Part shown: positions 14,441 to 35,065 of the stretch, piece by piece | Layout: each line of letters starts with the position of its first letter | Numbering within the stretch: the stretch's first letter is position 1 | DNA from: Escherichia coli | GTDB taxonomy: Bacteria; Pseudomonadota; Gammaproteobacteria; Enterobacterales; Enterobacteriaceae | Strand: one strand, 5' to 3' | Assembly: GCF_024298765.1 (NCBI RefSeq) | Contig: NZ_CP101210.1 | DNA length: 64,000 nucleotides | Program-made: the position numbers and the translations under genes | Notes under the pieces: generated by a model | Databases searched by the model: none | The model's input: only the letters and a program-made list of their open reading frames with translations | Told to the model about the DNA's origin: nothing

Positions 14441-14624
14441 AAAAAAGCCCGCATCAGCGGGCTTTAATGTCATAGGGAGTCGCGACTCCGTTGCGTATCC
14501 TTTTTTGTCTCCTCACCGTCTGGTCGGTGTCCTGCTGAGACTTATAACTTCCTGTTTTTGTTGGTGTAGTCCTTACACCGTCCAATCATGATTGGTGGAG
14601 CTGGCGGGAGTTGAACCCGTGTCC
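14441..14624. repeat. Left att-associated direct repeat: displaced copy of the ssrA 3' end (~33 nt) plus ~150 bp of ssrA-downstream sequence
   Basis: ~90% identical by eye to 54238-54423; homology to ssrA stops at 14624, after which AT-rich prophage sequence begins. Confidence 0.7.
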
Positions 14625-15050
14625 ATAGTTATGTAATTCATTGAATTTAAATAGCCAAATATTGTTGATTTTACAAGCGGCTCTTTTGCGGAACTTTTTC
14701 TGTCCTGTTACTGTCTTACTATTTATTTTAAAATAGTTTCATTTGGAATTAATGGTTTGTGGTTGCAGTTTCGGAGATAGATAGCATTTTTTGCTAAAAA
14801 ATATTTTTATAAAAAATGTGTGTAAAAATGATGTTATGCACAGATTTATGCACAGAGGCTTTGTGATAAACCAGATTGTTTTGGATAAGTTTGTTTTTTT
14901 GTGATTTGTCAACAATATTATTGACTCTTGTTACTAAAGTGAGTGTTTTCTAAGGTGGTCAGAAGTTGTCCCTTCATGTAATCTTATTAGCCATAAAGAA
15001 CAAAAAATAATTCAACATCATTACCAACTATTTGTAAGATAAGGTTTTTA

Positions 15051-15866
15051 ATGTTGCAGCCAGCAAAAAAAGCATCAGTTATTAGCGCGCGGCTAACGAA
15101 ATACCTCAAAGATGGAGTGAGGATTGATGACTTTAGCTTTAGAAGGATGTTACGTGAGATTGAAGCACTTAGAGATCCTGTCTCTGAGGACTATCTTTTA
15201 GCGTTGGTCTATGGTGCACATGGCCAAGTGAATGAGGCGATAGGCTTCTTTGAGCGTTCCTTGCAGGTATGCCATAATGAGGTTGTTGCAAAGAATTTTC
15301 TTGTTTTCTTGTCAGATTACGGTACGTTGAAGAAAAGCTTTGAAACAAGCATTAAGCTTGCTGAAAGCTTCATATCCCCGTTTATTTATCTTCAAGCTTA
15401 TGAAAACTCCCTCTTTATGGGGAAGATGGCGTTGGCGGAGAAGTATTTCCAGTCATACTCTAAATTGTTCGGAGATAAGGAGCCTGAAAAAATGGACAAC
15501 AATCTTGATGAAGTTGTTTCCCAGGTCGAATCCTTTAAGCAACGTGCCGATCTTTCTGGTTTAGAATATGAACTTATTTTCAATAATGTAGCCAATGTCA
15601 TGGATTCTCAGAAGGTTCATCTTTCGGGAATGCGTTTTTATAATATTTCGGAAGAGAAAGTGAATGCGATTGTATTCATGACAAAGTCTTCTGATGCTGA
15701 ACAAATCGCTGATATGAATATTGAGCTTGCTTTTTCAATGGCTGAGCACGATTGTTTAGTCGGTAAAGATTTTGCTGTTTGGTTTGAATGTAAAGACACA
15801 CATATTGAGCAGAATGCTATCTCCGAATTAGGTCTGATTACCCGGAGGGTTGCACATGCCGGTTAA
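15051..15866 (+). CDS. Hypothetical protein (271 aa), first gene of a two-gene cargo operon beside attL/int; function unknown
   Basis: Clean ORF, soluble and helical-looking, no motif I recognise; AT-rich by eye; AT-rich upstream leader. Confidence 0.55.
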   Translation: MLQPAKKASVISARLTKYLKDGVRIDDFSFRRMLREIEALRDPVSEDYLLALVYGAHGQVNEAIGFFERSLQVCHNEVVAKNFLVFLSDYGTLKKSFETSIKLAESFISPFIYLQAYENSLFMGKMALAEKYFQSYSKLFGDKEPEKMDNNLDEVVSQVESFKQRADLSGLEYELIFNNVANVMDSQKVHLSGMRFYNISEEKVNAIVFMTKSSDAEQIADMNIELAFSMAEHDCLVGKDFAVWFECKDTHIEQNAISELGLITRRVAHAG

Positions 15867-16239
15867 TAGTCAAGATTTTCTCGGTTTTGCAAAAGACTGT
15901 CATCAACGTAATGACGAAATCGGCTATCGAAATGCTATAGCAAGATCCTACTATGGCGCTTACCATCATGTCTTGCCTTGTATGGTAAACGGGCCGAAAG
16001 ACAGTCATCAGGGGCTAATCAATTATTTGCAGGGCGATGCTTCAAGAGGAAGTGAAGTATATGAAGCTAGATATCTAAAAGGGATTAGTTTTATCCTGAG
16101 TCAACTTAAAGCTCAGAGGATTGTTGCAGACTATCGACTTGATCAATCGGTCACTTCTAAACAGTCTGAAGTTGCGATTCTAACAACTGAGAGGCTCTTT
16201 GCTAAGTGTACGGAAATGCTTAAATCGAGAGCCTCCTAA
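15850..16239 (+). CDS. Hypothetical protein (129 aa), overlaps upstream gene by 17 nt; contains an R-x6-H dyad (RSYYGAYHH)
   Basis: Overlapping start implies translational coupling; followed by a terminator hairpin at 16246-16270. Confidence 0.5.
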   Translation: MHMPVNSQDFLGFAKDCHQRNDEIGYRNAIARSYYGAYHHVLPCMVNGPKDSHQGLINYLQGDASRGSEVYEARYLKGISFILSQLKAQRIVADYRLDQSVTSKQSEVAILTTERLFAKCTEMLKSRAS

Positions 16240-16245
16240 TTGATA

Positions 16246-16270
16246 AAGCCACTTAAGTGGCTTTTTTTGT
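16246..16270. terminator. Hairpin plus T-run between the convergent cargo operon and int
   Basis: aaagccacttaagtggcttttttt. Confidence 0.6.
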
Positions 16271-17425
16271 GATATTGCTGGTCGTATTACCGTCATATTC
16301 CTTTAAATATAAACCATAATGACGAAATAACATTTCCGGCCCTTTATGCCCCATTTGAGCTGCAAGCCAAAACAGGTTTGCTCCCCGGCTGATATGGCGG
16401 GTGGCGAATGTATGCCTAGTTTGATATGGATTTCTGTAACGAATACCTGCTTTTCGCAATGTTGGCACCCATGCTTTTTTCCTGATTGCATCAGCACTTG
16501 CCCAAGGCTTATTGGTCTTTGGATCTTCAAAGACAGTAGTATCCTTCATGAATGTAAATGGCTTCTGATTTATCAGCGCCAACATTGCCTCTTCTGTCAG
16601 TTCAACTTTCCGAGTACCTGCTTTTGTCTTTGTCCCTTTGATAACACCGACAACACTTGCGCTCTGGACATGGGCAGTTTTTCCAACAAAGTCGATATCA
16701 CGCCATCGAAGGGCACATAATTCAGAACTACGCAGGCCTGTATGTATAGCGAACCGGAACAGATTTTCCCATTGTTTGTTTCCGGCTGCTGCTAGTAATG
16801 CATCAACTTCTGCTGGTGATAGCGGATCAACTACGTAGCTGCTTTCTGCTTCTGACTTATCACTTTGGTAGCGCGAAGCTGTTACTAACGATACGGGGTT
16901 AATTTGAAGTACCCCATCGGTCACGGCTTCATCAAGTGCTGACCGCAGGAAAGATAACTGGTTGCGAATTGTTTTTAAGGTCGTTTTCTGATTTTGAATC
17001 CACGCTTTCAGGGTTGCTGGTGTTAATTCACTTGCAGGGCAAATGTGAAGTGAGGCTAACGCACTACGGCATTTTTTATAGCCACCAATCGTAGAGGGTG
17101 AAAGTTTTCTTGTTTCGCAGATTTCAAGATATTCGTCCAGGTACATCTTTACCGTTTTGCCTGCAGCAGCATTACCAAAAATTTTCAAACGAGCAGAACG
17201 GGGAAAATATTCTGCATAAATGAATGTTCCCCTTTCGATCTTATTATGGATTTCGCCGAGTGTACGCTCGGCGTATTTAATGTTCTTTGGTGTTACTTCC
17301 AGATTGGAAAGCGGCTCACGACATCTAACTCCTTTGTAGGTGAAAGTTATATTGATCGTTTCTCCCTGGCGGTGTTTCCTGATTGTTACGCCGCGCGGTA
17401 GTTTGAGCAGTTTTGTCTGGCCCAT
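16253..17425 (-). CDS. int: Phage integrase, tyrosine recombinase family
   Basis: 390-aa ORF with C-terminal catalytic region (...HTGLRSSELCALRWRDID...RHTFATRHISRGANLFWLAAQMGH...); adjacent to xis and the att region. Confidence 0.85.
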   Translation of the reverse strand: MGQTKLLKLPRGVTIRKHRQGETINITFTYKGVRCREPLSNLEVTPKNIKYAERTLGEIHNKIERGTFIYAEYFPRSARLKIFGNAAAGKTVKMYLDEYLEICETRKLSPSTIGGYKKCRSALASLHICPASELTPATLKAWIQNQKTTLKTIRNQLSFLRSALDEAVTDGVLQINPVSLVTASRYQSDKSEAESSYVVDPLSPAEVDALLAAAGNKQWENLFRFAIHTGLRSSELCALRWRDIDFVGKTAHVQSASVVGVIKGTKTKAGTRKVELTEEAMLALINQKPFTFMKDTTVFEDPKTNKPWASADAIRKKAWVPTLRKAGIRYRNPYQTRHTFATRHISRGANLFWLAAQMGHKGPEMLFRHYGLYLKEYDGNTTSNITKKAT

Positions 17426-17631
17426 TTTGCAACCTCACTAAGATCAATCCACCTCTCCTTAACGCCTTCAACCTTTAAAACCTGAACACCTTCACGCCAA
17501 ACACCGCGCTGTACACGTTTGTTTATTGCTTCAGGAGTTTCGCCAGTTTCTTTGCAATAAGTTGAGATAGGAACACAATCGAGGTTCAGCATACGTTTCT
17601 CCATTATCCCGTCTGCACACGGGAGCAACAT
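17386..17631 (-). CDS. xis: Putative excisionase / small DNA-binding protein
   Basis: 81-aa basic ORF immediately upstream of and overlapping int by 40 nt, as in lambda xis-int; exact start uncertain. Confidence 0.5.
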   Translation of the reverse strand: MLLPCADGIMEKRMLNLDCVPISTYCKETGETPEAINKRVQRGVWREGVQVLKVEGVKERWIDLSEVAKWARQNCSNYRAA

Positions 17632-17633
17632 TA

Positions 17634-18524
17634 TTAACGAATAGTGTCGTTACTTTGAAGTACAGCAAATGCCATTAATACTTCTAAAGTATATCTTCTA
17701 TAAAATTTAACAAAACCAACATAGAAAACATAGACGAAGAAAAAGCTAAGCATTATTGAAAGTAAACTATAAAGATAATCACTATGAGTACATAATCGAT
17801 AAATAAAGGTTGGAACTGATACCCAAAATGAAATTATAAAGATTAAACATATGTTTCTGCAAAAACCATATAATGCAACATAGTTTTGAATTTTTGTTTG
17901 ATGTTGTTTTGAAAACTCATAAACATAATGATATGCCAATCTGAAGAGATCATCATCAAGTCCGTTTTTATCTTGTAATAATTGGCGATTTGTTATGAAC
18001 TTTTTCTCATAACCTTCTTTGATCATTAACCATGTTGTATTAGCTAAATGAAATGGTAGAGATTGAGAATAACATAGTTTTTGTGTTATAAAATCCCATA
18101 GTATTATTGGGCATAATACGCATTTGATTATGCGATTCTTTATTTTTGTTTTTTTATCAGCGCTTCTCTCATCGCATGATGGGCTACAAATGCTTTCTGA
18201 GGTATCTATCAATTTTTTAAATAGATATTTGGAAGGATATCCTAATTCTTTATTCATGTATTTTTCGATAAAAAATGCTGACGTGATAGAAATAAAATGT
18301 CCAGCTATATAAGATATAATAACTATTGAAGCGTAGTTCAAAATGCCAAAGATTTGACTTTGACCTCTGAGCAATTCACTTAAGTCAATAACAATATCTA
18401 GATCGAATGTCAAACCACAGAAATACATTAATAGGATAAAAAAACCACCTGGTATTAAATATCCAAGAAAGTCATAGAATGAGAATGGATTTTGATTCAT
18501 TGTTGCTCTCCAATAATTTTTCAA
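17634..18524 (-). CDS. Hypothetical integral membrane protein (296 aa; ~2 N-terminal and ~2 C-terminal TM helices around a soluble core)
   Basis: Strikingly AT-rich by eye compared with neighbours; hydrophobic stretches FFILLMYFCGLTF, IVIISYIAGHFISITSAFFI, ICLIFIISFWVSVPTFIY, LLSIMLSFFFVYVFYVGFV. Confidence 0.55.
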   Translation of the reverse strand: MKNYWRATMNQNPFSFYDFLGYLIPGGFFILLMYFCGLTFDLDIVIDLSELLRGQSQIFGILNYASIVIISYIAGHFISITSAFFIEKYMNKELGYPSKYLFKKLIDTSESICSPSCDERSADKKTKIKNRIIKCVLCPIILWDFITQKLCYSQSLPFHLANTTWLMIKEGYEKKFITNRQLLQDKNGLDDDLFRLAYHYVYEFSKQHQTKIQNYVALYGFCRNICLIFIISFWVSVPTFIYRLCTHSDYLYSLLSIMLSFFFVYVFYVGFVKFYRRYTLEVLMAFAVLQSNDTIR

Positions 18525-18608
18525 TTTGTAATATAACCTATATCTATATGTTAATAAATTACTTATATGTTCTTTTATGGCAGAGTTTGAATTCGTACGT
18601 GCTGATTT

Positions 18609-19145
18609 TTACGACTCAGTTAACTCTTTAAAGCGTTCCATAAACATCCCATAGGTATGGCCTGGCGACAGTGGAATAACTTTGAACATCTCTGTTGCCG
18701 GGATACCTTCCAGTACGGGCCAGAAAGAGCCATCATCAAGCCCGAGATCGCGGCGTTCGGTTGCCAGCATGATGAGATCGGCATATTTCACGGGCGTACT
18801 CATAACCGGGGGTAACCCGTATTTCTCACGGATTACGGCGTCTATTTTTTCTTCCATCCGTTTATAGTCAGGAAGAAGGCGTTTCAGTGGAGCCGGGATG
18901 TCCTGGCAATACGCTTCTGTTGCATCATGCATTAACGCTTCAAAAGCAAATTCCTGCGGTACCAGCTGGCTGCAAAGCACCGCATGTTGGGCGACGCTGT
19001 AGAAGTGTGAAAGATGGCCGGCAAAGCGACAGATATTTGAAAGGGAAACCGCGATATCGTTAATATCGATGTTGTCTTTATTTATCCTGTCATAATAAAA
19101 ATGTTTCCCGGAAAAAGTTTTAATAAATGACATTTTGTTCTCCAC
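18609..19145 (-). CDS. HD-domain phosphohydrolase, YfdR-like (putative 5'-deoxynucleotidase)
   Basis: 178-aa ORF with H...HD motif (ALMHDATEAY); same size and position as YfdR of prophage CPS-53. Confidence 0.65.
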   Translation of the reverse strand: MENKMSFIKTFSGKHFYYDRINKDNIDINDIAVSLSNICRFAGHLSHFYSVAQHAVLCSQLVPQEFAFEALMHDATEAYCQDIPAPLKRLLPDYKRMEEKIDAVIREKYGLPPVMSTPVKYADLIMLATERRDLGLDDGSFWPVLEGIPATEMFKVIPLSPGHTYGMFMERFKELTES

Positions 19146-19261
19146 GTTATATGCGCTGCACCGCGCTGAATTTTGGTTAAAGAAAACCCTCGCCTTCAGG
19201 CGATTATTGAGTCAATTACGTTTCCATAAATGCCCCCGCAGGGGCATTTGCAGTAATGAAA

Positions 19262-20086
19262 TCAGGCGGTGAAAGTCCCAATAAAGGTTTCTACTTTGCT
19301 GTCCTTGAATTTCTCAACAAGCAGATCACGAAATTCGTTAGCCATATCTTCCTGCACCGCTTCCAGCTGAATAATGCGCAGAACCAGTACAGGACGATCG
19401 CCAGTGATAATGCTGAGGCGTAATTTAAACGGACGTTCTTTCAGACCTTCAAACGGAACGCATTTAAACTCAAATGCCACTGGCATAATGTCTTTGGTCT
19501 TCGCTTCGACAGACTCCATCAGGGAGCGTTTGCCGCTGAAGTCATTATCTTCAAAATCAGCAGTCTGGTTTGCTTCAATCGTGATTTTACGGACCGCCGC
19601 AGCCGCTTTTGTTGCCTGAATGGTGTCACCATTAGCATCAAAGCCCACAAGATAGTCGGCCCAGTCTTCGATCCATTCTGCCAGTGATTTCTGGGAGTTA
19701 CGCTCTCCATTAACAGACAACAGAGCAGAGAACGGTGCTGTCTTTTTCAGTTTGAGAGTGGCGGTGTTATCTGCGTGACCTGGTTCATCAATAGTACCCA
19801 GGTTAAGCACACTGACGGCACGCATATTATCAGCATCGATAAAGCAGCGGGTGCCTTCATCTGCAAGATCTTTAGAATAACGGGTAAAGTCATCAATGCT
19901 GGCAGTGGAAAGCGCACCACGGAAACGGAAGCGATTTAAATTAAATTTTTCCAGATCATGAATGCGGAAATTCTCAGGCAATGCCACAGCATCGGCACCA
20001 ATCTTACTGATAATTTCATTAACACCCTGAGCAGAAATAAGAGCATGGATTTGATTAATTGCGGTTGCGTCTAAGTTCTGAGACAT
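19262..20086 (-). CDS. YfdQ-like (DUF2303) prophage early protein
   Basis: 274-aa [24 protein letters not shown]...; recalled similarity to CPS-53 YfdQ. Confidence 0.6.
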
Positions 20087-20151
20087 AATAAGTCCTCACT
20101 ATATAAAGATATTCAGTGATGAGATAAATAATCAGTTAATTAAGAACGATA

Positions 20152-20514
20152 TTAATGACCTGCTGCGCGGAGTTTTCCGTCAGGCTCACCGGCAAGAGTC
20201 AGTAATTGTCCCTGGTCTTCCTGCAGAATAGTCAGGCGACCACCGCGATTGACATACATCGGCGTTTCGGTGGTGTCTTCTTCGGAAATTTTCCCACGGT
20301 TAGTCGGGCGAACATATGAGAGTTTGTGTTTGATTTTCACACGGTTCTCATCAAATGGTTCGATTTCCAGGTTGAGTGAGACCTTACCTTTGGTTTTCGT
20401 GTTCATCACACCGGAAGCGACTTCACTGAGAACTGCGCCGATTTTGGTTTCAAATACGCCGCCGTCCAGCTCCCCGATAAATGCCTGCACATCAGTACTG
20501 CGTTCGCTAGCCAT
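20152..20514 (-). CDS. YfdP-like prophage early protein (hypothetical)
   Basis: Likely start at MASERSTD, with GAGGAG 8 nt upstream on the coding strand; track ORF extends to 20700. Confidence 0.5.
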   Translation of the reverse strand: MASERSTDVQAFIGELDGGVFETKIGAVLSEVASGVMNTKTKGKVSLNLEIEPFDENRVKIKHKLSYVRPTNRGKISEEDTTETPMYVNRGGRLTILQEDQGQLLTLAGEPDGKLRAAGH

Positions 20515-20856
20515 TTTGCTGCTCCTCATCATATCGACCCTGCAAGGCCGATTAGTTTCTCCACAAAACAGAGAAGAACACCTGCGGTGGCAGCCGCCCG
20601 GATGGATTGGGTTATGAGCCCGTCGTCCGATGATGTTCTTCTCTGTTTTGTAAAAAGAGCGGTACCAGCCGGAAGCAAGTGTACAAACTGGTACCGCCAA
20701 AGCAGTGGCTGTTGTGGTGACCGGTGCTGATCTCCGGCTTGCGGTTATTTCAGACTCTCACGGGCGTTTAATTGCCCCGCCGAACAGCTCTTTTCCGCAA
20801 TAGCTGCAATGTCTTTCGCGCATCAGCCTGCGCATTCACCACAACTCTAAAAACAA

Positions 20857-20909
20857 ATGTAGGATATCCAACGTGTGGGTGTCAAGAGTTTATGTTGGTT
20901 ATCCTACAT
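20857..20909. promoter_or_regulatory. Left operator/promoter region (OL/PL-like): two copies of the repressor operator motif
   Basis: atgtaggatatccaac and gttggttatcctacat, the same motif found three times at OR. Confidence 0.55.
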
Positions 20910-20971
20910 AAAAAGATAGGCTCATAAAAAAACCGGGGATACCCCGGTTTTGCGATAGTGAGGAAGATGTG

Positions 20972-21625
20972 TCAAAAATCCATTATTACTTGTTTGACAA
21001 GACCAACTATTCTGCAGTTCTCACCGCATTCAATAGTTTTATAGTTAGGATTTAGTGGGACGAGATACCTGTTCGGCCAGTCCTCAACAAATTTTTTGAG
21101 TGTCGCTTCTTGCCCACCATTGATATGGGCAACAACGATTTTTCCGTTAATACACTCTGTATCAATAATATCTGGCTCTACGATAACGATAGAACCTTCT
21201 GGTATCGATGGTGAGCCGAGGGGATTGGTCATTGAATCACCACGGACCCGTAGTGCAAATGCCATTTCTGATACAAGGGCGGTAGTATAAACCCACTCTT
21301 CAGCATCTTCTTTCCTGACACCAGGCTCCGTCATTGTCCATGAACCCGCCTGAACCCACGAGATGAGGGGGACTTTTTTAACTGCGAATATTTCAGGTTT
21401 TAGATTTATCTTTGGTTCAGGCGAGCCTTTTCCGCTAACAAGCCACAGAGGATCGCATTTAAGTGCGTTGGCTAGGGCTTGAAGGTTGGCTCCATTTGGT
21501 TGGTAGTCGTCCTTTTCCCATCCAGTAACCGTGACACGGTTCACACCAGTCAAATCAGCCAGTGCTTGTTGTGTCAGGTTCAGTTCTTTTCGCCTTTGGC
21601 GAATACGATCACTCATGTTCATCAT
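20972..21625 (-). CDS. CI-like prophage repressor (N-terminal XRE HTH, C-terminal S24 LexA-like peptidase domain)
   Basis: 217-aa ORF; HTH (LTQQALADLTGVNRVTVTGWE) and S24 motifs (RVRGDSMTNP ... KKF); divergent from a cro-like gene. Confidence 0.8.
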   Translation of the reverse strand: MMNMSDRIRQRRKELNLTQQALADLTGVNRVTVTGWEKDDYQPNGANLQALANALKCDPLWLVSGKGSPEPKINLKPEIFAVKKVPLISWVQAGSWTMTEPGVRKEDAEEWVYTTALVSEMAFALRVRGDSMTNPLGSPSIPEGSIVIVEPDIIDTECINGKIVVAHINGGQEATLKKFVEDWPNRYLVPLNPNYKTIECGENCRIVGLVKQVIMDF

Positions 21626-21688
21626 GTAGGCAATCCTACCACATGCTCATGTAGGATTCTTGACATTGATATGTTGGATATCCTACAT
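21624..21688. promoter_or_regulatory. Right operator region (OR1-3-like) with divergent PRM/PR promoters
   Basis: Three operator copies (atgtaggcaatcctac, atgtaggattcttgac, gttggatatcctacat); ttgaca -35 at 21660-21665; cI ATG abuts the operator. Confidence 0.6.
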
Positions 21689-21720
21689 TTCTGCTTAACG
21701 TAATTTAACGGGAGACAGAA

Positions 21721-21918
21721 ATGCGGAAATCCGACGTGATTAATTATTTCGGCGGAGTTTGTAAAACCGCCGAAGCCCTAGGTATTAAGCATCCGTCTGT
21801 TTCAGAGTGGCCTGAGATTATTCCTGAAGGCCGAGCGTACCAGTTAGAAAAAATTACTAACGGGAAACTGAAAGTTGACGTGTCTTTATATCAAAAGACT
21901 AACAGTGCTGCGGCATAA
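21721..21918 (+). CDS. Cro-like small HTH regulator (YdaS/DicC-type)
   Basis: 65-aa ORF divergent from cI directly after OR. Confidence 0.65.
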   Translation: MRKSDVINYFGGVCKTAEALGIKHPSVSEWPEIIPEGRAYQLEKITNGKLKVDVSLYQKTNSAAA

Positions 21919-21945
21919 AAACACCACAGAAATGAGGAATTAACC

Positions 21946-22530
21946 GTGGGTAAAGAACCTGAATGGAAAGTTGATAAACAACCAGCATGGCTGGTGGCAG
22001 CAATACGAAGAACGATTGCTGATTTACCTCATGGCTATGAGGAAGCAGCAGAAATTCTTGGTTTGTATAAATCTGATGATATCACCCCAGCAAAAGATCA
22101 ATTGCATAACAGACTGCGTAGCGGTGGGGATCAAATTTTTCCACTTGAGTGGGCCATGGTTTTACAGGATGCCAGTGGTACCAGGCATGTAACAGATGCA
22201 ATAGCCCGTCGTAGTAATGGGGTGTTTGTGCCGCTGGTGGTCATTGATGACATTGACAATGGTGACATTAATCAGCGGCTGATGGAGTCAATAGAATGGA
22301 TTGGCAAGCATTCCCAGTACTTACGCAAGGCAACTGCTGATGGAGTTATTGACCAAGCTGAGCGTGAGCAAATCGAAGAGAACAGCTACCAAGTAATGGC
22401 GAAGTGGCAGGAGCATTTAACACTGTTATTTCGTGTTTTTTGTGCGCCGGAAAAGAGTAACGCCCGCGAGTGTGCAGCTCCGGGCGTCGTGGCGTCGATT
22501 GCTTCTGGTTGTGGAGAAACTAACGCATGA
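21946..22530 (+). CDS. YdaT-like (CII-position) prophage regulatory protein
   Basis: 194-aa ORF, GTG start with GAGG upstream; position after cro. Confidence 0.5.
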
Positions 22531-22865
22531 ACAGTTTAACAACACACTACCGTCGTTCGCAACTGATTGCGCTTCCTGTACCGGGTGGAAAAGCGAAGGT
22601 GGAGTATTGCTATGCAGTGAATGTACCAGGTGATAGGGAAATTGTAACCCACAGCTTTGCAGAGTGGGCTGTGGGTGATTTCAACCGGCAGAAGGAGACA
22701 GTCCTTTGCGACAAGTTAACCGCTGGTTCAAAGATCACTACGGAGTGCCCGTCAGAGTCATTCGTTGGGAGCCGGAAACACAACGGGTTATCTACCTCCG
22801 TGAAGGCTATGAACATGAATGCTTCAGTCCGCTCGAACAGTTTCGTCGTAAATTCAGGGAAATAG
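22527..22865 (+). CDS. Hypothetical protein (112 aa); may be the 5' part of a frameshifted gene
   Basis: ORF overlapping the 22706-22918 ORF in another frame. Confidence 0.3.
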
Positions 22866-22918
22866 AGGTCGGTCATGAGCCTGTTAATGACATCCCAGCC
22901 CATTGTGATAAATCGTGA
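22706..22918 (+). CDS. Hypothetical protein (70 aa); may be the 3' part of a frameshifted gene
   Basis: Overlaps the upstream ORF and the replication-gene start. Confidence 0.3.
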
Positions 22919-23867
22919 TCTTGCATGCCGTATTGGTCTGAATGAGGCAATTGTGTTGCAGCAGCTTCATTACTGGCTGAATGAAACGAATTCAGGCACT
23001 GAGCATGGCGGAATTCGCTGGGTTTATAACACGACAGAACAGTGGCTGGAGCAGTTTCCGTTCTGGTCAGAGTCCACTCTGAAACGCACATTTGCAAGCC
23101 TGAAATCACTTGGGGTTTTGCGTCGCGAGCAACTCAATAAATCGAAGCGTGACATGACCAACTTCTACACGATCAACTATGAAAGTGAGCTTTTAGAAGA
23201 GGTCAAAGTGAACGAATCCATCAGGTCAAAATGCACTTCTCCATCGGGTCAAAGTGACCTGATGGATGAGCGCAAAATGACACGATCCATTGGTTCAAAA
23301 CGACACGCTGTCATCGGGTCAAAATGGCCCAATGATCTTACAGAGAATACAACAGAGATTACTACAGAGAATAAAACCTCTTCTCGTCCGGACGCTTCGC
23401 AACCGGACACGCAGATGGCTGAACAGGATTTTTTAACTCGCCATCCTGATGCGGTTGTATTCAGCCCTAAAAAGCGCCAGTGGGGAACGCAGGATGATTT
23501 GACCTGCGCACAGTGGCTCTGGAAAAAAATCATCGCTCTGTACGAGCAGGCCGCCGAATGTGACGGCGAAGTGGTACGTCCTAAAGAACCGAACTGGACA
23601 GCCTGGGCAAACGAAATTCGCCTGATGTGTGTACAGGATGGGCGTACTCACAAACAAATCTGCGAGATGTACAGCCGCGTCAGCCGCGATCCGTTCTGGT
23701 GCCGTAACGTGCTCAGCCCGTCGAAGCTGCGGGAAAAATGGGATGAGCTTTCCCTGCGCTTATCGCCGTCCGTCAGCACGTACACAGAAAAACGCGAAGA
23801 TCCGTACTTCAAAGCCAGTTACGACAACGTGGACTACAGCCAGATCCCGGCAGGATTCAGGGGGTGA
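22875..23867 (+). CDS. Phage replication initiator (lambda O-like / replisome organiser) with embedded origin iterons
   Basis: 330-aa ORF with N-terminal DNA-binding-like region; iterons inside the coding sequence as in lambda O. Confidence 0.7.
   Translation: MSLLMTSQPIVINRDLACRIGLNEAIVLQQLHYWLNETNSGTEHGGIRWVYNTTEQWLEQFPFWSESTLKRTFASLKSLGVLRREQLNKSKRDMTNFYTINYESELLEEVKVNESIRSKCTSPSGQSDLMDERKMTRSIGSKRHAVIGSKWPNDLTENTTEITTENKTSSRPDASQPDTQMAEQDFLTRHPDAVVFSPKKRQWGTQDDLTCAQWLWKKIIALYEQAAECDGEVVRPKEPNWTAWANEIRLMCVQDGRTHKQICEMYSRVSRDPFWCRNVLSPSKLREKWDELSLRLSPSVSTYTEKREDPYFKASYDNVDYSQIPAGFRG
23199..23326. repeat. Origin-type iterons: five direct repeats of ~CATCRGGTCAAARTG inside the replication gene
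   Basis: gaggtcaaagtg, ccatcaggtcaaaatg, ccatcgggtcaaagtg, ccattggttcaaaacg, tcatcgggtcaaaatg, followed by an A/T-rich stretch. Confidence 0.7.
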
Positions 23868-23869
23868 TC

Positions 23870-23962
23870 ATGAGTCTTTTGAATGAAGTTCAGAAATTCA
23901 TTGAAGCCCATCCGGGGTGTACTTCCGGAGACATTGCGGATGCTTTTTACGTGGGGGCTTAA
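23870..23962 (+). CDS. Possible small coupled ORF (30 aa) between the replication gene and the methylase
   Basis: ATG overlaps the upstream stop; TAATG overlap with the methylase start; found by hand. Confidence 0.3.
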   Translation: MSLLNEVQKFIEAHPGCTSGDIADAFYVGA

Positions 23963-24615
23963 TGAGTAATAAATATTGTCAGGCGCTGGTGGAGCTGCGG
24001 AACAAACCATCCCATGAACTGAAGGAGGTGGGCGATCAGTGGCGCACGCCGGACAGCATTTTCTGGGGAATTAACACCTTGTTTGGCCCGTTTGTTCTGG
24101 ATCTGTTCACTGACGGTGATAACGCCAAATGTGCCGCGTATTACACGGCGGAAGACAACGCGCTGGCGCATGACTGGTCAGAACGCCTTGCGGAGCTTAA
24201 AGGTGCTGCCTTTGGCAATCCCCCATACAGTCGCGCCAGTCAGCATGAGGGGCAATACATCACCGGCATGCGTTACATCATGAAACATGCCAGTGCCATG
24301 CGTGATAAGGGCGGGCGCTATGTTTTCCTGATCAAAGCTGCCACCAGCGAAGTGTGGTGGCCGGAAGATGCGGACCATATTGCTTTTATTCGCGGGCGTA
24401 TTGGTTTTGAACTGCCTGCCTGGTTTATCCCGAAAGATGAGAAGCAGGTGCCGATAGGCGCTTTCTTCGCTGGTGCTATTGCTGTTTTTGACAAGACCTG
24501 GAAGGGACCGGCAATCAGCTACATCGGGCGCGATGAACTTGAGGCATGTGGTGAGGCCTTTCTGGCGCAGGTTCGCCAGCAGGCAGAAAAACTGGTCAGG
24601 GAGATGGTGGCATGA
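23962..24615 (+). CDS. Phage-type DNA N6-adenine methyltransferase (Dam-like, orphan)
   Basis: Start at MSNKYCQALVEL (track ORF starts at 23917); contains the FGNPPY motif, a D/N-PP-Y/F-type catalytic signature. Confidence 0.7.
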   Translation: MSNKYCQALVELRNKPSHELKEVGDQWRTPDSIFWGINTLFGPFVLDLFTDGDNAKCAAYYTAEDNALAHDWSERLAELKGAAFGNPPYSRASQHEGQYITGMRYIMKHASAMRDKGGRYVFLIKAATSEVWWPEDADHIAFIRGRIGFELPAWFIPKDEKQVPIGAFFAGAIAVFDKTWKGPAISYIGRDELEACGEAFLAQVRQQAEKLVREMVA

Positions 24616-25001
24616 AGCTGATCCTGCCTTTTCCGCCCAGCGTGAACACGTACTGGCGACACCCCAACAAAGGGGCGTTTGCTGGTAAGAGCCTGATAAG
24701 CGCGGCGGGGCGAAAATTCCAGAGCGCGGCGTGCGCAGCAATAGTTGAGCAGTTACGTCGTCTGCCGAAACCAACGTCGGCACCTGCTTCAGTGGAGATC
24801 GTGTTGTTTCCTCCGGATAACCGGATCCGCGATCTGGACAACTATAACAAGGCGCTGTTTGACGCCCTGACCCACGCGGGTGTGTGGGAAGACGACAGTC
24901 AGGTGAAAAGAATGCTGGTGGAGTGGGGACCGGTTATCCCGGGAGGGAAGGTCGAGATCACTATCAGTAAGTACGAGAAAACGGCGGGTGCAGCCGCCTG
25001 A
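24612..25001 (+). CDS. rusA: RusA-family Holliday junction resolvase
   Basis: 129-aa ORF MKLILPFPPSVNTYWRH...DLDNYNKALFDALTHAGVWEDDSQV. Confidence 0.8.
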   Translation: MKLILPFPPSVNTYWRHPNKGAFAGKSLISAAGRKFQSAACAAIVEQLRRLPKPTSAPASVEIVLFPPDNRIRDLDNYNKALFDALTHAGVWEDDSQVKRMLVEWGPVIPGGKVEITISKYEKTAGAAA

Positions 25002-25020
25002 TTAAGAGGAGAAACGAAGT

Positions 25021-25818
25021 ATGAATAATCTGATGGTCATTGATGGTATTGAAGTTCGTCGTGATGCTTATGGTCGTTACAGCCTGAACGATCTGCACAG
25101 GTCTGCCGGTTCTCTGGATAAGCATAAGCCTGCATTCTGGCTCCGCAATGAGCAAACTGAACGTTTAATAAGCGAGTTGCAGATTTGCAACTCGGTCAAT
25201 ATAGAGCCAGTTAACGTTATTCGTGGCGGAAATAACCAGGGGACGTATGTCTGCAAAGAACTGGTGTATGCCTATGCAATGTGGATCAGCCCGTCATTCC
25301 ATCTGAAGGTGATCCGTACTTTCGACATGGTAACCAGCGCACCGGAAAAATTATCCGGACAGGCTGCTGACAAGATGCAGGCTGGTGTGATCCTGCTGGA
25401 CTTTATGCGCCGGGAATTAAACCTGTCTAACTCATCAGTGCTTGGAGCCTGTCAGAAGCTTCAGGAGGCTGTTGGCTTACCGAATCTGGCACCGCGCTAT
25501 GCCATTGATGCTCCTGCTGATGCACTCGATGGCTCAAGCCGCCCGACACTGTCACTGAGTGCACTGCTGAAGCAGTATGGTATCCGCCTGACAGCTAATC
25601 AGGCATATCACCAGATGGCGAAGCTGGGGATCGTTGAACAACGTGAACGATACAGCCGCACTGCGATTAACAACATCAAAAAATTCTGGTCGCTGACGGC
25701 GAAAGGCTGCATGTTCGGCAAGAACATCACCAGTCCCGCAAATCCGCGCGAGACGCAGCCGCATTTCTTCGAATCCCGATTCCCTGAGCTGTTAAAGCTG
25801 CTCGATACCGTTCATTGA
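25021..25818 (+). CDS. KilA-N-domain protein (antirepressor-like)
   Basis: N-terminal pattern (IDGIEVRRDAYGRYSLNDLHRSAG...KPAFWLRNEQT) typical of KilA-N. Confidence 0.6.
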   Translation: MNNLMVIDGIEVRRDAYGRYSLNDLHRSAGSLDKHKPAFWLRNEQTERLISELQICNSVNIEPVNVIRGGNNQGTYVCKELVYAYAMWISPSFHLKVIRTFDMVTSAPEKLSGQAADKMQAGVILLDFMRRELNLSNSSVLGACQKLQEAVGLPNLAPRYAIDAPADALDGSSRPTLSLSALLKQYGIRLTANQAYHQMAKLGIVEQRERYSRTAINNIKKFWSLTAKGCMFGKNITSPANPRETQPHFFESRFPELLKLLDTVH

Positions 25819-25819
25819 G

Positions 25820-26815
25820 GTGACCGTGAGAGCACTACTGACCCCTGAAATTGCCCCGCGTATGGGGATCGTATTGTTCAGACCAGGTTCAGAGCTGATG
25901 CCCTTGTTTATGCAGGGGCGTGTCCTGCTGGAGCCTGAGCCGGAACGTTATTCATCTTTCGCCAGTGGTGCCGTTCCGGCGGCATCACAACCGCTGGCGG
26001 ATGATCCTGCCGTTCGGGCCGTGTTCCGCAATGAGGCAGTGATCCGTCGTGCTGGTGGCGTGGAATGTCTTGAAAGCTGGTTACTTCGTGAAAAAGGCTG
26101 CCAGTGGCCTCATTCCGGCTGGCACAGCGAGAACATGACAACAATGCGACACGCTCCGGGCGCAATCCGTCTGTGCTGGCACTGCGATAACCAGCTGCGC
26201 GATCAGTTCACGGAACGGCTGGAATCAATGGCAACGGATAACTGTGCCCGCTGGGTGTTGTCTGTTGTGCGTCGGGATCTCGGTTTTGATGACAGTCATG
26301 TTGTGACAATGCCGGAACTGTGCTGGTGGCTGATTCGTAATGATCTGGCGGATGCCTTACCGGAAAGTGCAGCCCGTAAGGCACTGAGATTACCGAAGCC
26401 TGTTGTGCCGTCTGTTACCCGGGAAAGTGACCTTGTGCCTTCGGTTCCTGCCACCAGCATCATCCAGGATAAGGCGAAAAAGGTGCTGGCGCTGAAAGTG
26501 GATCCGGAGTCGCCGGAGTCTTTTATGTTACGCCCAAAACGTCGCCGCTGGGTTAATGAAAAGTACACGCGCTGGGTTAAGACACAGCCGTGTGCATGTT
26601 GTGGAAAGCCCGCTGATGATCCCCACCACCTGATAGGTCACGGTCAGGGTGGAATGGGAACAAAAGCGCATGACCTCTTTGTGTTGCCTTTGTGCAGAAA
26701 GCATCACGACGAGCTGCATGCGGATACCGTGGCATTTGAAGAGAAGTATGGCTCTCAGCTGGAGCTGATATTTCGTTTTATCGATCGTGCGCTGGCAATT
26801 GGCGTATTGGCGTAA
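25820..26815 (+). CDS. DUF968 (YdfU-like) prophage protein with C-terminal Cys/His cluster
   Basis: C-terminal CACCGKPADDPHHL...CRKHHDELH motif. Confidence 0.55.
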   Translation: MTVRALLTPEIAPRMGIVLFRPGSELMPLFMQGRVLLEPEPERYSSFASGAVPAASQPLADDPAVRAVFRNEAVIRRAGGVECLESWLLREKGCQWPHSGWHSENMTTMRHAPGAIRLCWHCDNQLRDQFTERLESMATDNCARWVLSVVRRDLGFDDSHVVTMPELCWWLIRNDLADALPESAARKALRLPKPVVPSVTRESDLVPSVPATSIIQDKAKKVLALKVDPESPESFMLRPKRRRWVNEKYTRWVKTQPCACCGKPADDPHHLIGHGQGGMGTKAHDLFVLPLCRKHHDELHADTVAFEEKYGSQLELIFRFIDRALAIGVLA

Positions 26816-26828
26816 GTGGAGAACGAGC

Positions 26829-27581
26829 ATGAACCTTGAAGCCTTACCAAAATATTACTCCCCAAAATCTCCAAAATTGAGCGATGACGCACCGGCGACA
26901 GGCTCTGGTGGTTTAACAATTACGGATGTAATGGCTGCGCAGGGGATGGTGCAGTCGAAAGCACCGCTTGGGTTTGCCTTATTCCTGGCAAAAGTTGGTG
27001 TTCAGGATCCTCAGTTTGCGATTGAAGGTCTGCTCAATTACGCGATGGCACTGGATAACCCGACATTGAATAAATTGAGTGAAGAAACCCGGCTACAGAT
27101 CATTCCTTACCTTGTGAATTTTGCCTTTGCTGATTATTCCAGGTCTGCGGCAAGTAAGGCTCGCTGTGAGCATTGTGCTGGTACTGGATTTCATAATGTA
27201 TTGCGCGAGGTGGTGAAACACTCCAGAAGCGGGGAATCTGTTATCAAGGAAGAGTGGGTGAAGGAACTATGTCAGCATTGTCATGGTAAGGGAGAAGTCA
27301 GCACAGCGTGCAGAGGGTGTAAGGGTAAAGGTATTGTCCTGGATGAAAAAAGAACCCGGCTTCATGGTACGCCTGTTTATAAGATTTGTGGGCGTTGCAA
27401 TGGTAACCGTTTTAGCCGTTTACCAACCACACTGGCGCGGCATCATGTCCAGAAGCTGGTACCAGACCTGACGGATTATCAGTGGTACAAAGGATATGCA
27501 GATGTCATTGATAAACTGGTTACAAAGTGCTGGCAGGAAGAAGCATATGCAGAGACACAATTGAGAAAAGTGACAAGATAA
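26829..27581 (+). CDS. Late-gene antiterminator Q (zinc-binding)
   Basis: CEHCAGTG...CQHCHGKG...CRGCKGKG Cys clusters; immediately upstream of a promoter plus terminator pair and the lysis genes. Confidence 0.7.
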   Translation: MNLEALPKYYSPKSPKLSDDAPATGSGGLTITDVMAAQGMVQSKAPLGFALFLAKVGVQDPQFAIEGLLNYAMALDNPTLNKLSEETRLQIIPYLVNFAFADYSRSAASKARCEHCAGTGFHNVLREVVKHSRSGESVIKEEWVKELCQHCHGKGEVSTACRGCKGKGIVLDEKRTRLHGTPVYKICGRCNGNRFSRLPTTLARHHVQKLVPDLTDYQWYKGYADVIDKLVTKCWQEEAYAETQLRKVTR

Positions 27582-27612
27582 ATGATTTTCGCCGAAGATG
27601 GCGACATGATGC

Positions 27613-27715
27613 TTGCATTTTTCAAAAAATCTGGTTAGGATTCTCCTAACGATGGGCTTTGTATGTCTGCCGTTAACGAAATCATAACAAACCTCGCTTC
27701 GGCGGGGTTTTTGCT
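27613..27715 (+). promoter_or_regulatory. Late promoter PR'-like with downstream tR'-like terminator (Q-utilisation region)
   Basis: ttgcat -35-like hexamer at 27613; terminator hairpin cctcgc-ttcg-gcgggg plus ttttt at 27690-27715. Confidence 0.55.
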
Positions 27716-27731
27716 TTTCTGGAGGTCAATA

Positions 27732-27989
27732 ATGCAGGGCGAAAAGCAGCAGCCATATTTTTTTAACCCTGGTATGACTGTTGAACAGCTTGAAGACTGG
27801 CTGGAGCAGCAAAAGCTTCATCTAAGCCGCTATAACCGTCTGGTAAAAGAAAAAGCAGAGCTTGAAGAACGGCTCAGTGATATTTCTGTGGAAATTGAAC
27901 GAATGTCTGCTGGTGGTTTTAACGGAAAGTTGAGTTTCCCCTGGGAGTCAAGTTCGCTTCTGAGAAATCATCAACAGGGTAGTGTTTGA
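27732..27989 (+). CDS. Hypothetical late protein (85 aa)
   Basis: GGAGG 6 nt upstream of ATG 27732; first ORF after the tR'-like terminator. Confidence 0.4.
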   Translation: MQGEKQQPYFFNPGMTVEQLEDWLEQQKLHLSRYNRLVKEKAELEERLSDISVEIERMSAGGFNGKLSFPWESSSLLRNHQQGSV

Positions 27990-28068
27990 CTGAAATAATA
28001 AACAGACTGTCATTAAGATCCCTTCCCCTCATATCTGAGAGGACCAACAGCAATTAAGAGGGGGCTAA

Positions 28069-28455
28069 ATGTCCGATCCGATTTCCGGTACTGGGCTGGC
28101 TGGTGGTGCCCTGACGGGTGCCAGTGTTTATGGACTGCTGACCGGAACTGATTACGGCGTTGTATTTGGCGCATTTGCAGGGGCTGTATTCTACATAGCA
28201 ACAGCAGCAGATCTGAGTGCATCGCGTCGACTGGCATATTTTATCGTGTCATATATTGCCGGGATTCTTTGCTCTGGGTTGGTTGGCTCCAAGCTGGCGA
28301 ACTTGACCGGATACAGTGATAAACCTCTGGATGCTATTGGTGCCGTAATCGTCTCTGCTTTAGCCGTTAAAATCCTGACGTTCCTGAATAATCAGGATAT
28401 CGGCTCGCTGGTGGCGCTCATAACGCGCCGGGGAGGTTCAGGTGGAGCTAAATGA
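28069..28455 (+). CDS. Putative holin (membrane protein, lysis cassette)
   Basis: 128-aa hydrophobic ORF directly upstream of the endolysin. Confidence 0.6.
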   Translation: MSDPISGTGLAGGALTGASVYGLLTGTDYGVVFGAFAGAVFYIATAADLSASRRLAYFIVSYIAGILCSGLVGSKLANLTGYSDKPLDAIGAVIVSALAVKILTFLNNQDIGSLVALITRRGGSGGAK

Positions 28456-28723
28456 CCCGACAGCAACTATAAATGCGCTGTTATGTGCTTGTGTTGTTAT
28501 TACTCTGATGTTTTATCGTCGTGGTGATTCGCGGCATCGTCCTTGGGTTTCACGTTTAGCCTGGCTGATTACTGTTACATACAGTGCTGTTCCGTTGGCC
28601 TATCTCTGTGGGATTTATCCTCATTCCTCATGGCCCATTATCGTGGCGAACACTATTTTTCTTTCCGTGCTGGTGGCCGTCAGAGGCAACGTTGCACGTC
28701 TGGTTGATCATCTGAGGCACTAA
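28442..28723 (+). CDS. Second small lysis-cassette membrane protein (holin/antiholin candidate)
   Basis: 93-aa ORF with TM segments, overlapping the neighbouring genes. Confidence 0.5.
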   Translation: MELNDPTATINALLCACVVITLMFYRRGDSRHRPWVSRLAWLITVTYSAVPLAYLCGIYPHSSWPIIVANTIFLSVLVAVRGNVARLVDHLRH

Positions 28724-29337
28724 TGAACCAACAATTATTTCAAAAGGCGGCTGGTATTAGCGCCGGGCTGGCTGCGCGCTGGTTTCCGCACATTGATGCG
28801 GCGATGAAGGAATTCGGCATTACAGCACCAGCGGATCAGGCAATGTTTATCGCTCAGGTAGGCCATGAGTCGATGGGGTTTAGCGCCGTAGTTGAAAATT
28901 TTAACTACACACCATCTGCGCTGGTGGCGACGTTCGGAAAGAGGATCACACAGCAGCAGGCTGATGCCCTTGGCAGAACATCCGGACATGCAGCTCGTCA
29001 GGATGCTATTGCCAATCTGGTGTATAGCAACCGACTGGGTAACAAAGCACCAGGTGATGGCTGGAAATATCGTGGTAGAGGATTAATTCAAATCACTGGC
29101 CTCCATAATTATCGCATCTGTGGCGCGGCGCTGAAGTTAGATCTGGTGACTTCACCTGAACAACTGGAACAGGAACTACAGGCTGCGCGCTCAGCTGCAT
29201 GGTTCTACACCTCTAAAGGTTGCATGATCTACGGTGCCGATATTAACCGTGTTACGCGCATCATTAACGGCGGTCTGAACGGTATTGAGGATCGTAAGGT
29301 CCGATACAACAAGGCGCGGGCGGCGCTGCTGGTATGA
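28723..29337 (+). CDS. Endolysin, glycoside hydrolase family 19 (chitinase-like lysozyme)
   Basis: 204-aa ORF with GH19-like motifs (FIAQVGHESMGF, KYRGRGLIQITG). Confidence 0.75.
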   Translation: MNQQLFQKAAGISAGLAARWFPHIDAAMKEFGITAPADQAMFIAQVGHESMGFSAVVENFNYTPSALVATFGKRITQQQADALGRTSGHAARQDAIANLVYSNRLGNKAPGDGWKYRGRGLIQITGLHNYRICGAALKLDLVTSPEQLEQELQAARSAAWFYTSKGCMIYGADINRVTRIINGGLNGIEDRKVRYNKARAALLV

Positions 29338-29880: not shown

Positions 29881-29972
29881 TGTTAACTTTGTTTTGTTCC
29901 TTGATTTGATATGTGATGGCCCAATAGATACAAAGCACCTGATTTTGGTGACTCTTTTAAAGGGCTTTACAC

Positions 29973-30293: not shown

Positions 30294-30299
30294 TTTATC

Positions 30300-30335
30300 G
30301 AGATGATAATTGAACCGCCTCCGGGCGGTTTTTTA
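30300..30335 (+). terminator. Rho-independent terminator after the moron gene
   Basis: gaaccgcctccgggcggtttttt. Confidence 0.6.
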
Positions 30336-35055: not shown

Positions 35056-35065
35056 AGGAAACATC

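Follow-up and report, generated by a model that had tools for sequence, protein, structure and literature searches.

Elements that integrate into tRNA and tmRNA genes, such as P4, P22, HP1, and CP4-57, regenerate the 3′ part of their target and leave the displaced fragment at their far end, and ssrA, the tmRNA gene, is the most used integration target, at which tandem arrays occur (Islander, PMC4383910). The Citrobacter rodentium phage phiNP was shown experimentally to integrate at the 25-bp ssrA 3′ end in Escherichia coli K-12, in a paper that describes the core only, not arm repeats (PMC6456863). The attP of phage lambda (P1, P2, P′1–P′3; H1, H2, H′) is used by a heterobivalent Int with an N-terminal arm-binding domain. 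In S. pyogenes, a prophage at the ssrA 3′ flank sets the termination of a very strong transcript, at the ssrA terminators designated T1/T2, and read-through drives the speA cargo (PMC9951164). Thus target regeneration, displaced fragments, tandem occupancy, and lambda-type arms are already established (PMC4383910; PMC6456863), and the locus described here is an ordinary kind of attachment site, worked out in unusual detail. In the literature, no description was found of arm repeats, trailer classes, or an arm-like flank at unoccupied ssrA sites.

The window analyzed, a 64,000-nt stretch of E. coli contig NZ_CP101210.1 (assembly GCF_024298765.1), contains two direct repeats of ~184 bp, which are attR (14441–14624) and attL (54238–54421) of a 39.8-kb prophage in the ssrA 3′ end (Table 1). 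Each repeat consists of 27 nt of the ssrA 3′ end (14593–14619; 54390–54416) and ~157 nt downstream of the gene. The 26-nt ssrA 3′ end occurs exactly twice in the window, where 0 occurrences are expected by chance. As in the other tRNA and tmRNA gene elements, the target 3′ part is regenerated: intact ssrA and the displaced fragment stand at opposite ends of the element, in the same orientation on the minus strand. The int and xis genes are both at the displaced-fragment end, tail and invertase genes lie within the interval, and the same junction is found in uropathogenic CFT073 and nine other genomes. The integrase, whose arm domain (Pfam PF12167, Arm-DNA-bind_2) covers residues 10–77 (E 1.4e-23), is 87% identical to that of phage LLS and 92.7% identical to that of phiNP. 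Both free phages carry the trailer module in attP, with the LLS layout running from the trailer to the ssrA fragment, a gene for 271 aa, int, and xis. The ORF at 52947–54161, which adjoins ssrA, was considered as an integrase and ruled out; it encodes the EcoRII endonuclease (810 bits to 1NA6) and is paired with a Dcm-like methylase gene at 51437–52912. Collectively, we regard it as probable that these are the att sites of an LLS/phiNP-group prophage and that the 157 bp constitute a lambda-type P′ arm that doubles as the ssrA trailer.

Table 1. Features of the prophage att sites and of the integrase-side arm in the 64,000-nt window. Copy A is the repeat on the attL side and copy B the repeat on the attR side.
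Feature	Coordinates	Strand	Evidence or comment
Prophage, ~39.8 kb, LLS/phiNP-like, includes its own trailer (copy A)	14620..54389	.	phage genes; same junction in CFT073
ssrA (tmRNA gene), intact	54390..54752	-	ARAGORN; Rfam RF00023, 295.8 bits; last 27 nt inside attL
Tyrosine integrase with N-terminal arm-DNA-binding domain	16253..17425	-	phrog_1; Pfam Arm-DNA-bind_2 + Phage_integrase
Excisionase	17386..17604	-	phrog_2917, E 5.6e-45
Copy A, attL side: ssrA 3′ end + phage-borne 157-nt P′ arm/ssrA trailer	54238..54421	-	alignment; module also in LLS and phiNP attP
Copy B, attR side: displaced ssrA 3′ fragment + resident chromosomal trailer	14441..14624	-	165-nt identity to unoccupied-site flank (L001)
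Displaced 27-nt ssrA 3′ fragment	14593..14619	-	exact match + alignment
50-nt stretch identical between copies	14570..14619 (= 54367-54416)	-	alignment
Copy A intrinsic terminator of the ssrA unit, phage-supplied	54232..54262	-	terminator scan (54262-54239)
Copy B intrinsic terminator, resident, now displaced	14441..14465	-	terminator scan (14465-14444)
Copy A palindrome/hairpin 3, sense GGAGCCGCGGCUCU, 5-bp stem, CGCG loop	54273..54286	-	
Copy B palindrome/hairpin 3, GGAGUCGCGACUCC, T:A allele	14476..14489	-	allele in 1102/5426 E. coli
Copy A hairpin 2: outer stem GUCUC/GAGAU, inner CACCG/CGGUG, loop ACCAGA	54304..54338	-	
Copy B hairpin 2	14507..14541	-	
Copy A hairpin 1, loop AGGAC	54360..54376	-	
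Copy B hairpin 1	14563..14579	-	
Copy A tandem repeats AAAGGATACGC AAAGGAGCCGC, candidate arm-type Int sites (P′ arm)	54279..54300	-	motif comparison
Copy B tandem repeats, variant form AAAGGATACGC AACGGAGTCGC	14482..14503	-	motif comparison
P′ arm sequence proposed as Int target, AAAGGATACGCAAAGGAGCCGC			candidate
Copy B variant of the P′ repeat pair, GGAGTCGC			
Copy A array of five 11-bp repeats: three RGAC-type, then two specific	54277..54331	-	GGA/RGAC enrichment + phase
Copy B, same five-repeat array	14480..14534	-	
P arm (integrase side) tandem repeats AAAAAGTTCCGC AAAAGAGCCGC	14677..14699	-	family's fixed position
P arm, two RGAC-type repeats in the same 11-bp register	14700..14717	-	
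Copy A IHF-like site AAACAGGAAGTTA, one mismatch to WATCARNNNNTTR	54342..54354	-	consensus match only
Copy B IHF-like site	14545..14557	-	consensus match only
P arm IHF-like site ATTCAATGAATTA, one mismatch to WATCARNNNNTTR	14634..14646	-	consensus match only

An earlier sequence-only reading of this DNA had described the repeats as the ssrA 3′ end plus ~150 bp at ~90% identity, and this is borne out: 170 of 186 alignment columns are identical, with 13 mismatches, one internal 1-nt indel, and two end gaps in the global alignment of 14441–14624 with 54238–54422. In other elements at tRNA and tmRNA genes, unlike here, the identity does not extend ~157 bp past the gene. This extension exists because the resident and incoming flanks belong to one family; had no related arm been in place at the target, the repeat would span ~25 bp and not 184 bp. 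The contrast is provided by K-12, where the flank supplied by CP4-57 is short and unrelated. Thus phiNP, which has the same T1 arm (see below) in its attP, duplicates only 25 bp in K-12 because the resident flank there is CP4-57 DNA. Moreover, since phiNP integrates in K-12 despite the unrelated flank, extended homology is not needed in attB. The crossover must fall in 14570–14619, as this 50-nt stretch is identical in both copies, and the 25-bp phiNP core falls within it. An arm behind the core would explain att repeats seven times longer than the core reported for this group.

To place the arm among its relatives, post-CCA ssrA sequence was extracted from viral contigs, phage records, and a few genomes; the pattern used to scan genome contigs was too loose, and mostly chance matches with ~12 useful loci were obtained. 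The trailers sort into three classes. T1, the type in the window, has 84 unique sequences and includes Enterobacter, Lelliottia, Mangrovibacter, Rosenbergiella, Pluralibacter, and Photorhabdus, and T2 comprises the trailers of the PhiR12/LMessi type. Within T1, conservation peaks at GACAAAAAAGGATACGCAAAGGAGCCGCGG, which is retained even where the remaining trailer has diverged. This conserved block, which includes the 5′ half of the palindrome discussed below, is made of the tandem 11-bp repeats AAAGGATACGC AAAGGAGCCGC.

The same pair recurs on the other side of the core. From 80 fetched loci with integrases 87–100% identical, the integrase-side P arms were compared, of which 36 were unique. 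A tandem pair with the consensus AAAGGAnnCGC AAAAGAnnCGC is present in 29 of them, with its start 79 nt (in one case 78 nt) ahead of the ssrA fragment; shuffling the arms gave 0.1 matches and the opposite strand 0. In the trailers, this pair is the T1 block, found at +89/+90 in 78 of 84 sequences. The P arm never adjoins ssrA. Within a single phage, the P-arm and P′-arm repeats resemble each other without being identical, and both follow the integrase subclade in sequence: phages with Int at ≥87% identity (LLS, phiNP) carry GGATACGC/GGAGCCGC repeats, and those with Int at 69% (PhiR12_1–5, LMessi) carry a T2 trailer and ATATGCACKT AAAATGCACKT in both arms. Kp4866-6 shares Int and the ssrA core with LLS and phiNP and entered the repeat comparison without its trailer. 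Both arms are arrays in an 11-bp register, with two or three RGAC-type repeats followed by two specific repeats. This register accounts for the ~10.4-nt phase of the GGA motifs, of which the 128-nt trailer has seven (p ~0.008). A CsrA sponge was considered for these motifs and rejected, given that their phasing is better explained by 11-bp DNA repeats and that T2 is without most GGAs.

Because the integrase has an Arm-DNA-bind_2 domain, it must have arm-type sites. The recurrence in the P arm, the co-variation with the integrase, and this domain make the tandem repeats the most likely candidates, and we conclude that the pair most likely represents arm-type integrase sites in a lambda-like P′ arm, with binding predicted from the domain, the geometry, and the co-variation. 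Thus, among the options offered by the sequence-only reading, a protein-binding arm site fits best. The resemblance to lambda attP is extensive. It includes, besides the Int domain, short repeats at 10–11-bp spacing in both arms, tens of bp from the core, one IHF-like site per arm, located between the core and that arm's repeats (here consensus matches only), a Xis encoded beside int, and an attB that needs the core only. The order of the elements also matches, with candidate arm sites, a putative bending site, the core, a second putative bending site, and at least three candidate arm sites. The columns of the trailer-side IHF-like site are ≥90% conserved in the 84 T1 trailers, and IHF may bind at these sites. 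In contrast to lambda, the target is the ssrA 3′ end, one arm is presumably transcribed as the trailer of the target and ends in its terminator, the unoccupied target already has a P′-like arm, and the candidate sites have the repeat consensus AAAGGAnnCGC. These features give a testable lambda-like att map, with a core, IHF-like sites, and two arm clusters, for a widespread and little-studied family of ssrA-targeting integrases.

Unoccupied ssrA sites indicate which copy is which. Many E. coli, NZ_CP029164 among them, have glaH, the trailer, ssrA, and smpB in one contiguous run at 99.9%, and in genomes with an unoccupied site both outer flanks are joined at a single repeat copy. Copy B is identical over 165 nt to the unoccupied-site flank; therefore, copy B is the resident chromosomal sequence and copy A was delivered by the phage. 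In a second unoccupied type, exemplified by E. coli strain W60, ssrA and a T1 trailer are followed by ypjA, and this ypjA-linked trailer is the displaced copy in K-12 and O157. As the resident flank is itself a T1 arm, attL resembles another attB and attR resembles attP. The resident arm carries the array that phages keep in the P arm, which favors its being the footprint of earlier elements. We therefore lean, by a modest measure, toward a footprint over a host sequence that was captured by phages, in agreement with the suggestion of the sequence-only reading that the chromosomal copy had been shaped by related ssrA-targeting elements. The trailer is also found at unoccupied sites and in several Enterobacterales genera, an observation that speaks against phage origin and keeps a host origin with later phage capture as the somewhat less likely alternative. 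A more general proposal, which we put forward tentatively as a little short of evenly balanced, is that the 'empty' ssrA 3′ flanks of E. coli, and probably of other Enterobacterales, with their trailer and terminator, are a fossil LLS/phiNP-type P′ arm that is replaced at each lysogeny by the same family. Such an arm would hold two codes, DNA repeats for Int and IHF and hairpins selected in the highly expressed pre-tmRNA, with the hairpins found only in the arm that is transcribed.

Both copies contain a palindrome, GGAGTCGCGACTCC at 14476–14489 and GAGCCGCGGCTC inside 54273–54286, as the sequence-only reading had noted. The two differ by one complementary pair, T:A in copy B and C:G in copy A, and the outermost pair is also weakened in copy A. 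However, the palindrome is not the sole divergent block for which it had been taken, as 8 of the 13 mismatches are spread over ~26 nt that begin at the terminator and end shortly beyond the palindrome; the rest fall in the terminator loop, the linker, two hairpin stems, and the ssrA junction. The reading had further taken the swap to suggest selection on structure. While the wider comparisons described below lend the hairpin moderate support, the swap itself belongs to one fixed haplotype. A 33-mer with the T:A palindrome is found as a single copy in each of 1102 genomes among 5426 E. coli, and neither one-sided variants of the palindrome nor the C:G form in the glaH-linked flank were found in any of the 5426. 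The T:A palindrome belongs to the glaH-linked flank, the ypjA-linked trailer has the common C:G palindrome, and the swap is in complete linkage with flanking changes. Taken by itself, the swap is weak evidence for selection because it is one fixed allele without intermediates.

If so, then the swap might be an unselected mutational by-product. The same C-to-T change on both strands of a perfect palindrome (CCGCGG to TCGCGA) makes a mutational route possible, and the swap could have arisen without selection, either through symmetric deamination at a methylated site or through template switching at a quasipalindrome, by which a change in one half is copied into the other. Consistent with this, in addition to the single fully linked haplotype, the second change brings no gain in stability, with the U·G intermediate at −6.0 kcal/mol being no less stable than the final U:A form at −5.7 kcal/mol. 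Furthermore, the swapped C/T position is one of the degenerate 'nn' positions of the arm repeat, and a P arm with GAGTCGC exists (locus L446). Yet a by-product leaves unexplained that palindromes of different sequence occupy the same place in T1 and T2 and that the stem is retained with variable loops; in addition, no CCGCGG methyltransferase was identified, the prophage methylase being Dcm/EcoRII-like. On balance, a purely mutational origin appears unlikely, if not markedly so. We favor the view that the integrase probably tolerates either base at this position and that complementarity is what is kept. In the proposed arm, the copy B variant would thus represent a change at a degenerate repeat position with which the complementary base changed as well.

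The outer arm repeat GGAGCCGC supplies the 5′ half of the palindrome, and its inverted complement makes up the 3′ half. It could therefore be asked whether the palindrome is a symmetric DNA site of two inverted arm-type half-sites, bound by two Int arm domains or another dimer, rather than an RNA hairpin, with the swap keeping the half-sites alike. The copy A bottom strand AGAGCCGC does resemble the P-arm repeat AAGAGCCGC of the window, the GAGTCGC form is a P-arm variant in its own right, and one internal stem pair is invariant in the 84 sequences, as would suit sequence recognition. Against such a site, however, the CGCG center varies freely (CGTG, CGCA, CCCG, CTCG, CGTA), and one variant with a 3-nt insertion in the loop retains the stem. 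The outer pair is G·U in 21 sequences as opposed to few A·C, the Photorhabdus-type variant re-forms the hairpin only through G·U pairs, and P arms, despite otherwise equivalent repeats, show neither a palindrome with its inverted half nor the inverted arrangement that would make hairpin 2. A symmetric DNA site is therefore rather unlikely.

The hairpin reading of the palindrome, hairpin 3, fits these data better when the wider comparisons are considered. Related elements keep the palindrome, and unoccupied sites do possess the arm, two findings on which the sequence-only reading had staked its case; in the T2 class, a different 8-bp hairpin stands at the equivalent position. The pair counts of the hairpin 3 stem in the 84 trailers are GC59/GU21/AU1, GC84, AU75, GC75, and CG80/UA2. 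Because one of these pairs is invariant and two others are lost mainly via unpaired cells, they provide no covariation evidence, and the changes that occur are few (UA 2/84, AU 1/84). Thus the RNA evidence from hairpin 3 alone is thin, and our moderate confidence that the hairpin is real comes from the wider comparisons and not from this pair of copies alone.

The other helices of the trailer contribute more. Over hairpins 1–3 and the terminator, 87.8% of cells are paired, compared with 35–45% with slid partners, and cells with double changes number 125 versus 46.8 ± 4.9 in shuffled data, the observed value being reached in 0 of 500 shuffles. Hairpins 1 and 2 covary strongly, with many double changes, and hairpin 3 only weakly; the terminator stem also covaries (GC 70, AU 10). 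RNAalifold recovered the same helices in the 61-sequence main subfamily, with ~56 G·U versus ~12 A·C cells on the ssrA-sense strand, and almost no consensus in all 84 trailers, because the subfamilies differ in hairpin layout. Over the whole alignment, the count was 142 G·U versus 117 A·C, a strand asymmetry that became informative only within the main subfamily. Since the palindrome and hairpins are confined to the arm transcribed behind ssrA, and since two of the hairpins covary strongly, an RNA layer over DNA repeats is the simplest reading. A layer of RNA structure on the P′ arm is thus plausible from these comparisons, and the dual use of one arm as DNA and as RNA would be an interesting twist.

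An RNA layer might also have come first. The 157 nt would then be an ancestral structured trailer of pre-tmRNA with a role in processing, stability, or as a sponge, which phages copied to restore ssrA, and the block and palindrome would have been kept for the RNA. The presence of the trailer at unoccupied sites in two chromosomal contexts and in several genera, the strong covariation of hairpins 1 and 2, and the excess of G·U over A·C on the ssrA-sense strand are all in keeping with such an origin, as is the published finding that RNase III or E cleaves the 457-nt pre-tmRNA on its 3′ side, leaving an end that RNase T or PH trims (PMC3968760). However, the same tandem pair stands at a constant spacing in the P arm, a stretch that ssrA transcripts never include, and where the integrase subclade differs, the block differs with it in the two arms together. 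In addition, K-12 and many islands use unrelated short trailers. The K-12 trailer is of CP4-57 origin and has its terminator ~80 nt past CCA, a position that fits the 457-nt precursor; because K-12 works with this short unrelated trailer, tmRNA requires no specific RNA function of the T1 trailer. Nor does the trailer correspond to an Rfam family: in searches at gathering and permissive thresholds only tmRNA reached threshold, and sub-threshold matches were all on the terminator. No significant pairing of the trailer block with pre-tmRNA or its leader, as in S. pyogenes, was detected. A host RNA element as the starting point is thus improbable. Separately, the trailer was considered as a decayed ssrA 3′ fragment and this was rejected, local alignments being no better than shuffles (p 0.76–0.89).

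In both copies, the intrinsic terminator consists of a G+C-rich stem-loop followed by a T run on the transcribed strand. Because the terminator scan of the minus strand finds none between ssrA and 54262, the arm is presumably transcribed, and it would be only the P′ arm that is transcribed, behind the strong ssrA promoter. Collectively, the data suggest the following model for the LLS/phiNP-type P′ arm. Int and IHF would assemble on attP via two arm clusters, and recombination would occur in the terminal 27 nt of ssrA, which belong to the stretch of 50 identical nt. Outward from the core, the P′ arm would comprise a small hairpin, the IHF-like site, five 11-bp repeats, the palindromic extension, and the intrinsic terminator, and the last two repeats of the array (AAAGGATACGC, AAAGGAGCCGC) would be bound by the N-terminal arm-binding domain of Int. 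As the arm lies directly behind ssrA, it would also be the transcribed 3′ trailer and terminator of the gene. Integration would swap the resident trailer for that of the phage and move the resident arm and terminator to 14441–14593, after which the ssrA transcript would enter the phage P′ arm and stop at the phage terminator (54262–54239). In this manner, ssrA would remain closed as a transcription unit, and read-through would be kept out of the EcoRII endonuclease gene, which has the same orientation. By analogy with S. pyogenes speA, the terminator may therefore insulate the EcoRII gene from ssrA. The S. pyogenes case concerns a different phylum and a different phage, one that lies between two host terminators, whereas the phage here brings its own terminator and read-through into the EcoRII gene is a prediction. 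An antisense insulator, in which a plus-strand hairpin CGCGRCTCCKTTGCG followed by TATCCTTTTT would act with a two-way main terminator to stop phage and chromosomal transcripts from entering ssrA, finds plus-strand sites in the terminator scan of both copies (54278–54292 and 14481–14495) and two of three copy B changes that strengthen the alternative hairpin, but it is very improbable given a stem of three Watson-Crick pairs only, an uncompensated T for C at one stem pair in about one-quarter of the trailers with no covariation support, and P-arm copies that it leaves unexplained.

The terminator-bearing P′ arm has implications beyond this locus. It suggests that tmRNA termination and 3′-flank signals in many E. 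coli are phage-derived and exchangeable, and such an exchangeable flank bears on tmRNA expression and on read-through that reaches the cargo of a prophage, which at this locus is a restriction endonuclease; the parallel case in S. pyogenes drives expression of a toxin. Annotation may profit from the arm repeats and the three trailer classes as well, since they can help to assign ssrA islands to integrase families and to spot footprints of earlier elements at 'virgin' sites. The third of these classes, T3, has a short trailer with a hairpin and terminator, after which come GGTATACG repeats and a P4-like IntA gene.

Unoccupied ssrA sites exist in two configurations, ssrA–T1–ypjA, as in E. coli W60 (locus L383), versus ssrA–T1–glaH, as in E. 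coli strain 104 (locus L001), and the trailers of these two loci are ~91% identical. In the first configuration, 10 bp separate the terminator from the ypjA stop codon. The T:A allele of the palindrome is linked to the glaH-type flank (1102 of 5426 genomes). K-12 (NC_000913) has a short ssrA trailer that is unrelated to T1 and, like the terminator, consists of CP4-57 DNA (2755956–2756035; L246), and a T1 arm with the C:G palindrome lies 22 kb from this trailer, between psaA and ypjA (2777972–2778145; L385). Of these neighbors, psaA is an annotated pseudo-ssrA, and the T1 arm beside it carries no annotation.

The stems of hairpins 1 and 2 of the trailer covary, and their loops are almost invariant. 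The loop of hairpin 2, ACCAGA, is likewise retained in T2 trailers, and the short K-12 trailer contains ACCAGAG within a hairpin loop. Read antisense to ssrA, both copy A and copy B have a terminator-like hairpin that overlaps the palindrome and leads into a T-rich tail; in copy B, two of the three changes make this antisense hairpin stronger.

Features of the window
Feature	Position	Strand	Remarks
Hairpin 1	14563–14579; 54360–54376		Loop AGGAC
Hairpin 2	14507–14541; 54304–54338		Loop ACCAGA
Antisense terminator-like hairpin	14481–14495; 54278–54292	plus	T-rich tail follows
Tail-fiber and tail-fiber-assembly fragments	48510–49660		Opposite orientations; adjoin invertase
Gin/Cin-like DNA invertase	49651–50241		
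Dcm-like methylase	51437–52912	plus	NF007772, 927 bits
EcoRII endonuclease	52947–54161	minus	810 bits to 1NA6

The K-12 phage Ayreon (MF807953, about 25053–25166; L123) carries a T1-like arm with an extended palindrome, GGGAGCCGCGGCTCCC, and with neither the ssrA 3′ end nor a terminator; the Ayreon integrase is not one of the 40 listed sequences out of 64 related to the integrase of the window. In the Escherichia albertii ssrA trailer (L135), the first arm repeat has been lost (GAGGAGACAAGAGCCGCGGCTCC) and the terminator is different, and the palindrome is retained.

Prophages with the window's integrase family often share ssrA with a resident island, CP4-57-like or T3, and lie upstream of it (locus L033 and many of loci L387–L466). 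This is tandem occupancy of ssrA, and the flank past the displaced fragment is therefore DNA of the older island. T3 islands with a P4-like IntA (e.g., loci L040, L099, and L117) bear four GGTATACG repeats right past the ssrA terminator, outside the transcribed trailer, which are probably the arm-type sites of the P4-like IntA integrase family itself.

At its ssrA-proximal end, the prophage in the window carries a complete EcoRII-type restriction-modification pair (51437–54161), the endonuclease gene of which has the same orientation as ssrA and lies immediately past the terminator. At 48510–50241, the adjacency of a Gin/Cin-like invertase to oppositely oriented tail-fiber and assembly fragments suggests an invertible host-range segment.
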